This document shows positions 37,088-38,869 of a stretch of 64,000 bases of DNA, piece by piece (position 1 is the stretch's first letter; every line of letters starts with the position of its first letter). The stretch lies in contig JAJRVL010000011.1 in NCBI GenBank assembly GCA_024277355.1, forward strand, positions 34,155 through 98,154, read 5' to 3'. The translations under genes were made by a program, and so were the position numbers. The stretch comes from an archaeon (lineage in GTDB: Archaea > Iainarchaeota > Iainarchaeia > Iainarchaeales > 1-14-0-10-31-34). The notes beneath the pieces were generated by a model. It saw nothing but the letters and a program-made list of their open reading frames with translations, was not told the origin of the DNA and made no database searches.

Positions 37088-38869
37088 ATGGATTATGTTG
37101 TATTAGAAGCAAGCTATGAAGTAGCAAACAAAGTTGGCGGAATACATACAGTTTTAACAAGCAAATCAGCAAGAATGCAGGAAAAAATTCCTGAATTTTA
37201 TGAGATTGGACCTTACTACAAAAAAAAAGCACAAGTAGAATTTGAAGAAAAAGAAATTCCAAATAAATTTCATAAAACTTTTGTTGAAATGGAAAAAGAA
37301 TTAGGAATAAAATGCTATTATGGAAACTGGGTTGTAGCAGAAAAATCTCCAAATTGTATTTTAATTGACCATTTAAACTTAAAGAAAAAAACAAATGAAA
37401 TAAAAAAAGAGTTATGGGATGCATTTAAAATTGATTCAATGGGAACAGACGAATGGTTTAACGAACCGGTAATCTGGAGCAAAGCAGTCGGTTTACTAAT
37501 AGAAAAACTAGAAAAAAATAAAGTTTTTGGAAATAAAAAAATTGTTTCACATTTTCATGAATATTTAAGCGGAACAGGATTACTGCATTTAAAAAAAATT
37601 AAAAGCAAAACAAAAACGGTTTTTACAACTCATGCAACAGTTTTAGGAAGAACAATAGCTGAATCAAGAAAACAGGATTTATATGAATTAATTGAAAAAG
37701 GATTTAAAGAAAAACAAACTGCATCAAATGAATTAGCTTATTCTTATGGAGTTCAGTCAAAACATTTATTAGAAAAAGCATGTGCATTAAATGCTGATGT
37801 ATTTACTTCAGTAAGCAAAGCAGTAGCAAAAGAATCAGAATTTATTTTAGGAAAAAAATGCGATTTAATTCTGCCTAATGGATTAGATTTAGATAAATTT
37901 CCAATAATGGAAGACTTAAGTATTTTACATAAACAATACAGAGACAGAATAAGGCATTTTATTGAAGCATATTTTTATCCATATTATTATTTTGACATAA
38001 AAAAAACTTTGTTTTATTTTATTGCGGGAAGATATGAATTCCACAACAAAGGAATAGACTTGTTTATTGATGCCTTAGGAGAATTAAATAAAGAACTAAA
38101 AAAACAGAAATCAGATTTAAAAATAATTGCTTTTATCTGGATTGCAGAAGAAACAACAGCAAGAAATTTAGCTGTAATGGAAAACATGGTAATACACCAA
38201 ACCATAGAAGATTTAATGGAAAGAGAACTGCCTAATATTCAAAGACAATTATTTAGAAATTTAATGGAAGGCCAAAAACTGGAAACAAATTTATTTGAAA
38301 AAGACTTTTTATTAAATTCAAAAAAAATGGCTTTAAGATTAAAAAGCAAAAAAGAAGTTTTGCCTCCAATAAGTGCATTTGAAACAAGAGAAAATGAAAT
38401 ATTAAAATCAATTAAAAGAAATAATTTATTAAACAAAGAAGAAGACAAAGTCAAAATCATTTATTATCCAACTTATTTAAGTACTGCAGATGGATTAATC
38501 GGATTAAATTATTATGAAGCAATAATCGGATCACATTACGGAATTTTTCCTTCTTATTATGAACCCTGGGGTTATACTCCATTAGAAACTGCTGCTTTAG
38601 CTGTTCCTTCTGTGACAACAGATTTAGGAGGATATGGGCAGTTTATTGAAGAAACATTAGGAAAAAAAGCTGAAGGAAGTATTCAGGTATTAAAAAGAAA
38701 AGGAAAAACATACAAAGAAGAAGTAAAAGAAATGAAAAATAAAATGAAAGATATTTATTTAATGACAAAACAGCAGAGAATGCAGAAAAAAATTAATGCA
38801 AAAGAATATTCTTTTTTGGCTGACTGGCGAAACTTAATTGAAAATTACATTAAAGCATATGAAAGCTAA
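37088..38869 (+). CDS. glycogen synthase, GT3 (eukaryotic-type) family
   Basis: 593 aa. N-terminus [26 protein letters not shown]...FYEIGPYY aligns with eukaryotic glycogen synthase ([18 protein letters not shown].SKA...LIGP). Confidence 0.65.
   Translation: [593 protein letters not shown]

Follow-up and report, generated by a model that had tools for sequence, protein, structure and literature searches.

Glycogen synthases of glycosyltransferase family 3 (GT3), such as human GYS1, yeast Gsy2p and Caenorhabditis elegans GSY-1, and their putative counterparts in prokaryotes are the closest described systems to a protein encoded in an archaeal DNA stretch of 64,000 nucleotides (assembly GCA_024277355.1, contig JAJRVL010000011.1, positions 34,155 to 98,154 of the forward strand), hereafter the window. 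The open reading frame (ORF) in question is found at 37088..38869 on the + strand. It is very probably a native, functional GT3 glucan synthase of a DPANN archaeon that works by the mechanism proposed below.

A Chem Rev review of 2024 tabulates GlgA-GT3 in DPANN archaea and Euryarchaeota, reports putative GlgA-GT3 proteins in DPANN archaea, Methanosarcinales, Bacteroidota and the PVC group, and found no glycogenin in DPANN (PMC11046441). In its maximum-likelihood tree, the DPANN GT3 proteins are nearer to those of PVC bacteria and eukaryotes, and the Euryarchaeota GT3 proteins form a separate clade (PMC11046441). PF05693 has also been described in 'some archaea, bacteria' (PMC10485787), and K00693 in 68 of 123 (55%) complete Woesearchaeales genomes (bioRxiv 10.64898/2026.05.13.725050). 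The protein described here belongs to the DPANN GlgA-GT3 group, with no substantive difference. As DPANN GT3 proteins have already been published, the surprise value of the gene is low, and one more GT3 sighting in a prokaryote adds little to the reviews and KEGG-based surveys that hold it. That review, the one paper identified by our searches with a detailed treatment of prokaryotic GT3, mentions neither a retained phosphate pocket of the glucose 6-phosphate (G6P) site nor a recurrent neighbourhood with a GalT-like gene and a second synthase gene (PMC11046441); what interest remains lies in these two points, which we describe below.

Family assignment, fold and catalytic centre

The ORF begins with ATG, has no in-frame start upstream of 37088 and encodes 593 residues; stop codons occur throughout the opposite strand. 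Its features are as follows.

37088..38869, + strand: GT3 (eukaryote-type) glycogen/alpha-1,4-glucan synthase, 593 aa (PF05693, PDB matches, AlphaFold2 model, Foldseek)
37130..37141, + strand: K15-V-G-G18 N-terminal nucleotide-sugar loop (K15, G17 and G18 invariant in alignment A1)
37907..37942, + strand: helix alpha13 segment M274-E275-D276...H281...R285, half of the predicted G6P pocket (human M290, H291, E292, H297, K301)
38168..38350, + strand: GT3-specific helical insertion, helices 361-393 and 405-421 (DSSP of the AlphaFold2 model)
38561..38587, + strand: E492-X7-E500 catalytic motif (invariant in 144/144 prokaryotic homologues)
38768..38821, + strand: regulatory helix 561-578 (K561, Q562, R564, K568, N570 and E573 = human R579, R580, R582, R586, R588 and R591)

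The best profile for this ORF is the GT3 profile PF05693 Glycogen_syn, not one of GT4 or GT5. It matched with 452.6 bits (cut-off 27; E=3.3e-135), residues 7-590 covering profile positions 1-578 of 639. In contrast, the GT5 glgA profile TIGR02095 gave 29.8 bits for a cut-off of 328, over the C-terminal 110 residues only, and the starch-synthase catalytic domain PF08323 had no match in the ORF in our Pfam search. The N-terminus aligns residue for residue with human GYS1 from residue 28, and BLASTP aligned the GYS1 core over 594 columns at 31% identity (E=6e-111). This likeness to eukaryotic glycogen synthases, both of the N-terminus and of the family as a whole, is far above chance, and the initial annotation was right to describe the start as of animal/fungal type and to assign the protein to GT3. 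A PDB sequence search gave the same picture: the 12 strong matches were all eukaryotic glycogen synthases, including 4qlb of C. elegans (1.4e-100), 8cvx (5e-99) and 6u77 (1.6e-95), with human GYS1 matching at ~5e-99 and yeast Gsy2p at ~1e-95.

An AlphaFold2 model calculated from a 60-sequence alignment (pLDDT 94, pTM 0.90) was compared with known structures using Foldseek. Human GYS1, yeast Gsy2p and C. elegans GSY-1 superposed with template-modelling (TM) scores of 0.91-0.94 and root-mean-square deviations of 1.7-2.9 A. The structures 8z0a, 7zbn and 5suk reached 0.94, the value for the human and the yeast enzymes, so that the full-length architecture is that of the eukaryotic GT3 proteins. 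The next family was GT5, represented by the Pyrococcus abyssi enzyme, with a TM score of 0.50. GT5 GlgA proteins such as P. abyssi glycogen synthase and Escherichia coli GlgA share with the GT3 protein the retaining GT-B fold, the E-X7-E motif, the K-x-GG loop and the reaction class, but they are devoid of its helical insertion and regulatory helix. A GT4 or GT5 identity for the ORF was ruled out by the profile scores together with the fold; its identification is correct, and it represents a known kind of gene. The insertion helices are the counterpart of the eukaryotic tetramerisation domain and lie inside the full-length superposition at TM 0.94. Based on the model, the GT3 protein thus probably assembles as a tetramer.

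To compare active sites, we used the list of ligand contacts of human GYS1 (PMC9287172) and mapped the residues twice, with a HMMER pairwise alignment and with a MAFFT alignment of 144 prokaryotic and three eukaryotic sequences. Two entries of that list, 'His287' and 'Arg311', do not match the human sequence rebuilt from the PDB alignment (F287, H311). The G6P-site His was therefore taken as H297, which corresponds to yeast H286, and R311 was not used.

The KVGG loop, the diphosphate clamp and the E-X7-E motif are common to the eukaryotic enzymes and the GT3 protein, as are the helical insertion, the regulatory helix and the residues that would bind the phosphate in the G6P site. Human G41, H205, R211, R331, K337 and Y493 are identical in the GT3 protein (G17, H182, R188, R315, K321 and Y475); G17 corresponds to the ribose contact G41, and R315 and K321 form the diphosphate clamp (human R331/K337). 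E492, W494, G495, Y496 and E500, which correspond to human E510, W512, G513, Y514 and E518, are invariant in all 144 prokaryotic homologues. Altogether, the 11 donor and catalytic residues (G17, H182, R188, R315, K321, Y475 and the E492-E500 set) are kept in 142-144 of the 144. Judged by these residues, the active site is intact, and glucan-synthase activity is predicted from the family, the modelled fold and the residues. The glycogenin-facing Cys pocket of the human enzyme (C137, C189 and C251) is replaced by F, L and N, respectively.

Phosphorylation tails and predicted sugar-phosphate pocket

The GT3 protein covers residues 28-608 of the 737 of human GYS1. Both the N-terminal tail (sites 2/2a) and the C-terminal tail (3a onward) are thus absent, as had been noted initially. 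Absence of the tails is general in the prokaryotic family, whose members extend past the core by a median of 6 aa on the N-terminal side and 8 aa on the C-terminal side.

The initial annotation proposed on these grounds a possible 'minimal', UDP-glucose-dependent form and recommended a check of the Arg cluster involved in G6P activation. The word 'minimal' holds only in part. Both tails and three of the six arginines of the cluster are missing, whereas the predicted pocket for the phosphate of G6P is retained. The human segment RRQRIIQRNRTER aligns with helix 561-578 of the GT3 protein. Three of its arginines, R579, R582 and R586, bind the phosphate of G6P, and the corresponding residues K561, R564 and K568 are basic here as well as in 127, 128 and 140 of the 144 homologues, respectively. 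In contrast, Q, N and E stand in place of the arginines that sense phosphorylation in animals (R580, R588 and R591), and these positions (562, 570 and 573) vary freely across prokaryotes. The other residues of the pocket, R285, H483 and H281 (human K301, H501 and H297), are kept in 136 (as R or K), 124 and 130 of the 144 sequences. Given the absence of the tails and the loss of the three sensing arginines, we infer that the protein is not under phosphorylation control of the eukaryotic kind.

As we read these comparisons, the catalytic engine would be ancestral to GT3, as would the phosphate half of the allosteric pocket, and phospho-control would be a eukaryotic addition. The predicted effector may be G6P or another sugar phosphate. 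The sugar-recognising half of the site differs from that of the eukaryotic enzymes. An effector other than G6P is therefore conceivable, or else the residues may be kept for dimer packing only. According to the latter view, the basic pocket would be a structural relic at the dimer interface, and the enzyme would be constitutively active, unregulated and truly 'minimal'. The contacts to the glucose ring of G6P have indeed been replaced (Q294 by S, H291 by E), the tails and three cluster arginines are missing, and the pocket is remodelled in ~12% of the homologues. Nevertheless, charge type is preserved at five of the six phosphate-contact positions in ~90% of the 144 divergent sequences, while neighbouring cluster positions drift. 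Furthermore, several pocket residues switch in a correlated manner in one subclade, a pattern that suggests function at this site and not neutral drift. A mere structural remnant is quite possible but less likely than not.

The subclade in question, of Altiarchaeota type, comprises P0083, P0090, P0093, P0098, P0099, P0101, P0105, P0108, P0111 and P0112, several of which are labelled Altiarchaeota. In these proteins R564 is replaced by L, H483 by D, H281 by R and K568 by R, all together. That the pocket residues change jointly in one subclade argues for a coherent site, and the nature of the replacements suggests that the effector site has been changed or lost there.

A tail-less GT3 protein of 593 residues that appears to keep the phosphate half of the pocket would offer a simple experimental handle on allosteric activation, namely on whether it is an ancestral trait of the family that can be uncoupled from phospho-control. 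The same protein would also be a simple system for the study of priming without glycogenin.

A gene module around the GT3 gene

The GT3 gene is surrounded by genes related to glucan and sugar metabolism, listed here with the small ORFs among them.

32682..34535, + strand: debranching enzyme of glycoside hydrolase family 133 (GH133; PF06202 GDE_C, E=3.3e-30)
34621..35988, - strand: phosphoglucomutase/phosphomannomutase (PGM/PMM; PGM_PMM domains I-IV; NF046027, 495 bits)
36032..37018, + strand: class-I GalT/HIT-family nucleotidyl-transferase (PF01087/PF02744), 69 nt upstream of the GT3 gene and on the same strand
38983..39177, - strand: small 64-aa ORF, read from the sequence, 3'-terminal in the GT5-like/GH57 transcription unit
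39235..40404, - strand: GH57 glycoside hydrolase/glucanotransferase, 389 aa (PF03065, E=4e-80)
40404..41654, - strand: GT5/GT4-like enzyme, a second alpha-glucan-synthase-like GT-B protein (PF08323, PF00534; K-x-GGL, E-X7-E)
41832..42788, + strand: PfkB-family sugar kinase (PF00294, E=1e-40)
43165..43563, + strand: DUF5752 protein (PF19027, 23.7 bits)
43569..43841, + strand: small 90-aa ORF after the DUF5752 gene, also present in the close relatives L002 and L003
43969..46602, - strand: pyruvate phosphate dikinase (PPDK), placed by the gene order of the window

Synteny was analysed by comparing these proteins, using BLASTP, with the full ORF sets of 26 GT3 loci taken from GTDB genomes. The loci span DPANN archaea, metagenome-assembled genomes (MAGs) of Methanosarcinales and bacteria of the Candidate Phyla Radiation (CPR). 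Genes for the GT5-like and the GH57 proteins are found beside or near the GT3 gene in 17 loci each, followed by those for GH133 (11), GalT-like (9), DUF5752 (8) and PGM (5) proteins. The GT3 gene stands alone in five Paceibacteria-type loci and in the Flammeovirgaceae locus. The conserved module, made up of the GT5-like, GH57, DUF5752, GT3, HIT and GH133 genes, provides candidates for donor supply and priming in an extremely reduced metabolism.

The GH57 proteins beside GT3 share 48-86% identity across the 17 loci, and a PDB search with the one in the window yielded no related sequence at E<=0.001. It may be a branching enzyme, an amylase or a glucanotransferase. Its CSR-1 motif is 'HQP', which we take not to be of the branching-enzyme type. 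The PfkB kinase gene is kept in L002 and L003.

The GT5-like enzyme is encoded by a gene separate from that of the GT3 protein. Its start reads ...WEFPPFKSGGLGTY, in agreement with the K-x-GGL motif first noted for it. It scores 83.7 bits with PF08323 (cut-off 22.7), 123.9 bits with PF00534 and 105.9 bits with TIGR02095, which is below the cut-off of 328. It matches P. abyssi GlgA (2bis) over the full length at E=3e-23, BshA at 2e-23 and GlgM at 5e-19. BLASTP between the GT3 and the GT5-like proteins gave a match in the E-X7-E region only (E=0.001); judged by this comparison, the two are not recent paralogues.

DUF5752 homologues are encoded beside GH57 and GT3 in L002, L003, L007 (9194-9502), L009 (8908-9966), L010, L015 (8989-9936), L017 (2047-2367) and L021 (8216-8527). 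The gene recurs between those of GH57 and GT3 in loci of DPANN archaea, Methanosarcinales and CPR bacteria. The protein has close homologues only, and its AlphaFold2 model has a pLDDT of 75 and a helical core at residues 40-130. Foldseek found nothing significant for this model, the top structure, Thermoproteus tenax OrfY (4cso, E=0.8), being a lead only, and our literature search for DUF5752 returned no paper that mentions it.

The 64-aa ORF (MESNEYFGSKAGTVWNVLNNKKPMNAVQLKKATKLKSEHVFAALGWLAREGKIGISKNKFYLTE) is conserved at 84-88% identity and in the same position in L001-L003 only. By eye, it looks like a small winged-helix protein; its membership of the glycogen module is uncertain. Between this ORF and the GT3 gene, which are convergent, 38870-38990 contains three tandem palindromic T-rich elements (e.g. 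aaaccttttt..gaaaagttt). Judging from their sequence, they are probably bidirectional archaeal terminators; a scan for bacterial-type terminators did not flag them.

Proposed mechanism and donor supply

The GT3 protein would most likely use a nucleoside diphosphate (NDP)-glucose, plausibly UDP-glucose as in the eukaryotic GT3 enzymes, and add its glucose to non-reducing glucan ends by the retaining GT-B mechanism of the eukaryotic synthases. In elongating alpha-1,4 chains, it would probably act as a tetramer and probably be subject to feed-forward activation by a sugar phosphate, either G6P or a similar one. PGM would make glucose 1-phosphate (G1P), and the NDP-glucose would come from an unlinked pyrophosphorylase or from the HIT enzyme, which would interconvert G1P and NDP-glucose, in the synthetic direction by G1P + NDP -> NDP-glucose + Pi. 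The GT5-like synthase could prime the glucan or act in parallel, and GH57 and GH133 would remodel or debranch it.

Several observations weigh against this proposal. Two uridine-stacking residues differ consistently in prokaryotes from those of eukaryotes (I367 to W351, F481 to Y463), and the contact made by human K19 falls in the N-terminal tail that the GT3 protein lacks; its donor specificity is not readable from the sequence. In the G6P site, the sugar-contact residues are changed, Q294 to S278 and, in trans, H291 to E275, the latter being E in 139 of the 144 homologues. No GT3 protein from any archaeon has been characterised or assayed (PMC11046441). Lastly, the Pfam matches of the ~57 ORFs of the window include neither a glycogenin (GT8) nor an NDP-sugar pyrophosphorylase, so that priming and donor supply are matters that we infer. 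In the eukaryotic systems, in contrast with the DPANN organisms, glycogenin is known. There was no GT35 phosphorylase among these ORFs either.

The only linked nucleotide-sugar enzyme of the locus is the HIT protein. Its best PDB relative is 1z84 of Arabidopsis (At5g18200), which matches over the full length at E=8e-49; Pyrobaculum PaGalT (6k5z) matches at 2e-30 and E. coli GalT at 2e-19. A preprint cites At5g18200 as an ADP-glucose phosphorylase (bioRxiv 10.64898/2026.09.13.751320). The two proteins share a Cys-x-x-Cys zinc motif, CPFC, and the nucleophile motif H-x-H-x-Q, HNHSQ. The HIT enzyme also passes the NCBIfam galT_1 model (115 bits for a cut-off of 102), a score compatible with a classical GalT activity.

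The GT3 protein might use ADP-glucose rather than UDP-glucose, or be promiscuous. Its donor would in this case be made or recycled by the neighbouring HIT protein, in the role of an NDP-glucose phosphorylase (G1P + NDP <-> NDP-glucose + Pi). Consistent with this idea, the HIT enzyme is much nearer to At5g18200 than to E. coli GalT, its gene is linked to that of GT3 in 9 of the 26 loci, and the uridine-pocket residues of the GT3 protein differ from those of eukaryotes. Archaeal GT5 synthases accept several NDP-glucoses (PMC11046441). Furthermore, the window has no NTP-transferase among its ~57 ORFs. In 22 of the loci, a further 127 ORFs situated up to 6 kb from the GT3 gene matched 161 Pfam families, and the best 25 of these, counted as recurrent when present in at least two members, include no NDP-sugar pyrophosphorylase, GT35 phosphorylase or GT8 protein. 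Nevertheless, all characterised GT3 enzymes use UDP-glucose, a pyrophosphorylase gene could be located elsewhere in the genome, and sequence does not predict which nucleotide the HIT enzyme prefers. The equilibrium of ADP-glucose phosphorylase, moreover, favours G1P + ADP. Use of ADP-glucose, or promiscuity, with such a supply is possible but rather unlikely.

We also considered a more ambitious combination, in which a sugar-phosphate switch that predates eukaryotes, NDP-glucose supply by a HIT phosphorylase and a GT5-like primer-maker in the place of glycogenin would all hold together. Taken jointly, this appears unlikely. If true, it would imply that feed-forward control by G6P is older than eukaryotes, the tails and extra arginines having been added later, and that DPANN and CPR cells operate an NTP-sparing, phosphate-poised glycogen cycle.

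Alternatively, the GT5-like protein encoded at 40404..41654 could be the main glycogen synthase, with the GT3 protein making a different alpha-glucan or using a non-glycogen acceptor. Two synthase-like GT-B genes occur together in 17 of the 26 loci, and that their products are not recent paralogues suggests non-redundant roles. However, the glucose-binding and acceptor-side residues of the GT3 protein are identical to those of the eukaryotic synthases, and a debranching enzyme and a GH57 protein are encoded in the cluster, which is typical of branched-glucan metabolism. We consider such a division of labour improbable.

Host, native status and phylogeny

The host is a DPANN archaeon (Diapherotrites/Iainarchaeota) of 28% GC. 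The GC content is 24-34% throughout the window, and that of the GT3 region (0.28) is the same as that of its flanks. Archaeal markers in the window include a class III signal peptide, a KaiC-type ATPase and an archaeal D-aminoacyl-tRNA deacylase. The closest relatives of the GT3 protein are 80-84% identical and belong to MAGs labelled Candidatus Diapherotrites, Iainarchaeum, Micrarchaeota or 'archaeon', those at 81% carrying the label 'hypothetical protein [archaeon]'; close relatives keep the same flanking genes. The matching GC content, the archaeal markers and the DPANN relatives with the same neighbours indicate that the gene is native and not a contamination.

We calculated a neighbour-joining tree (573 columns, Kimura distances, 200 bootstraps), a crude method applied to a thin sampling. 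The GT3 protein grouped with the Diapherotrites/Iainarchaeum/Micrarchaeota orthologues with 100% support, and the enclosing clade, with 94% support, adds Aenigm- and Altiarchaeota. The three eukaryotic sequences clustered with the single Bacteroidota sequence at 100%, unlike in the published maximum-likelihood tree. The distance of the GT3 protein to eukaryotes is 1.43, among the farthest, compared with 0.99 for the Flammeovirgaceae protein. All that this tree shows is that the GT3 protein is no close sister of the eukaryotic synthases. The eukaryotic best PDB and Pfam matches might evoke contamination by eukaryotic DNA, or a gene acquired from a eukaryote only very recently. This explanation has practically no chance of being true and was ruled out, given a GC content equal to that of the flanks, an uninterrupted ORF in a conserved prokaryotic synteny, 80-84% identity to Diapherotrites MAGs against 31% to the human protein, and the position of the protein in a DPANN clade of the neighbour-joining tree with 94% support, among the sequences farthest from eukaryotes.

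In the same tree, the GT3 proteins of three loci from 'uncultured Methanosarcinales' MAGs (L009, L015 and L025) cluster with those of Nano-/Woesearchaeota at 100% bootstrap, and the gene order is shared. Their placement could reflect transfer, mis-binning or the crude tree.

Distribution of GT3 in prokaryotes

A word-indexed search with 8,000 scored candidates identified at least 5,169 clusters at 90% identity with E<=1e-10. An exhaustive HMMER search of 1.84 billion representatives at 50% identity yielded 950 matches at E<=1e-10, 410 of them at E<=1e-30. The named matches are from Diapherotrites, Aenigm-, Alti-, Woese- and Nanoarchaeota, Micrarchaeota, MAGs of Methanosarcinales and a Flammeovirgaceae bacterium, and, among CPR bacteria, from Paceibacterota, Parcubacteria, Saccharibacteria and Azambacteria. 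The GT3 protein is 42-53% identical to its Aenigm-, Alti-, Woese- and Nanoarchaeota and CPR homologues. The initial statement that GT3 enzymes are rare outside eukaryotes is thus outdated, with more than 5,000 clusters at 90% identity and a published phylogeny that already includes DPANN GT3. The family is in fact widespread among DPANN archaea, CPR bacteria, Methanosarcinales and Bacteroidota.

Six homologues from the search of representatives have ~1,415 aa (P0239, P0242, P0251, P0260, P0262 and P0267), and the query matched them in two stretches. Presumably, these proteins arose by fusion. In Bacteroidota, GT3 occurs joined to a phosphorylase-like domain.

Other features of the window

The window also harbours a gene cluster of the bacterial-type methylerythritol phosphate/1-deoxy-D-xylulose 5-phosphate (MEP/DOXP) isoprenoid pathway, at 46744-52038 on the + strand.

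46744-47760, + strand: Dxr
47999-48688, + strand: IspD
48704-49555, + strand: ORF at the position of IspE, with no family assigned
49615-50145, + strand: IspF
50215-52038, + strand: Dxs

Youssef and colleagues reportedly described in 2015 that Diapherotrites acquired the DOXP pathway by gene transfer. The MEP pathway is 'almost absent in archaea' (PMC11052028).

A leucyl-tRNA synthetase gene at 4268-6967 (+ strand) codes for a PF13603 editing domain. This domain is typical of bacterial-type leucyl-tRNA synthetases, and the gene is possibly another bacterial acquisition. A cluster similar to those of archaeal type IV pili is found at 12794-24055 (+ strand). It codes for a protein with a class III signal peptide, a 915-aa LVIVD/VWA protein, a T2SSE ATPase, two T2SSF membrane proteins and several proteins with no family. 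Lastly, a gene of the squalene/phytoene synthase family (PF00494, E=1e-43) is present in this DPANN genome, at 61135-62133 on the + strand.

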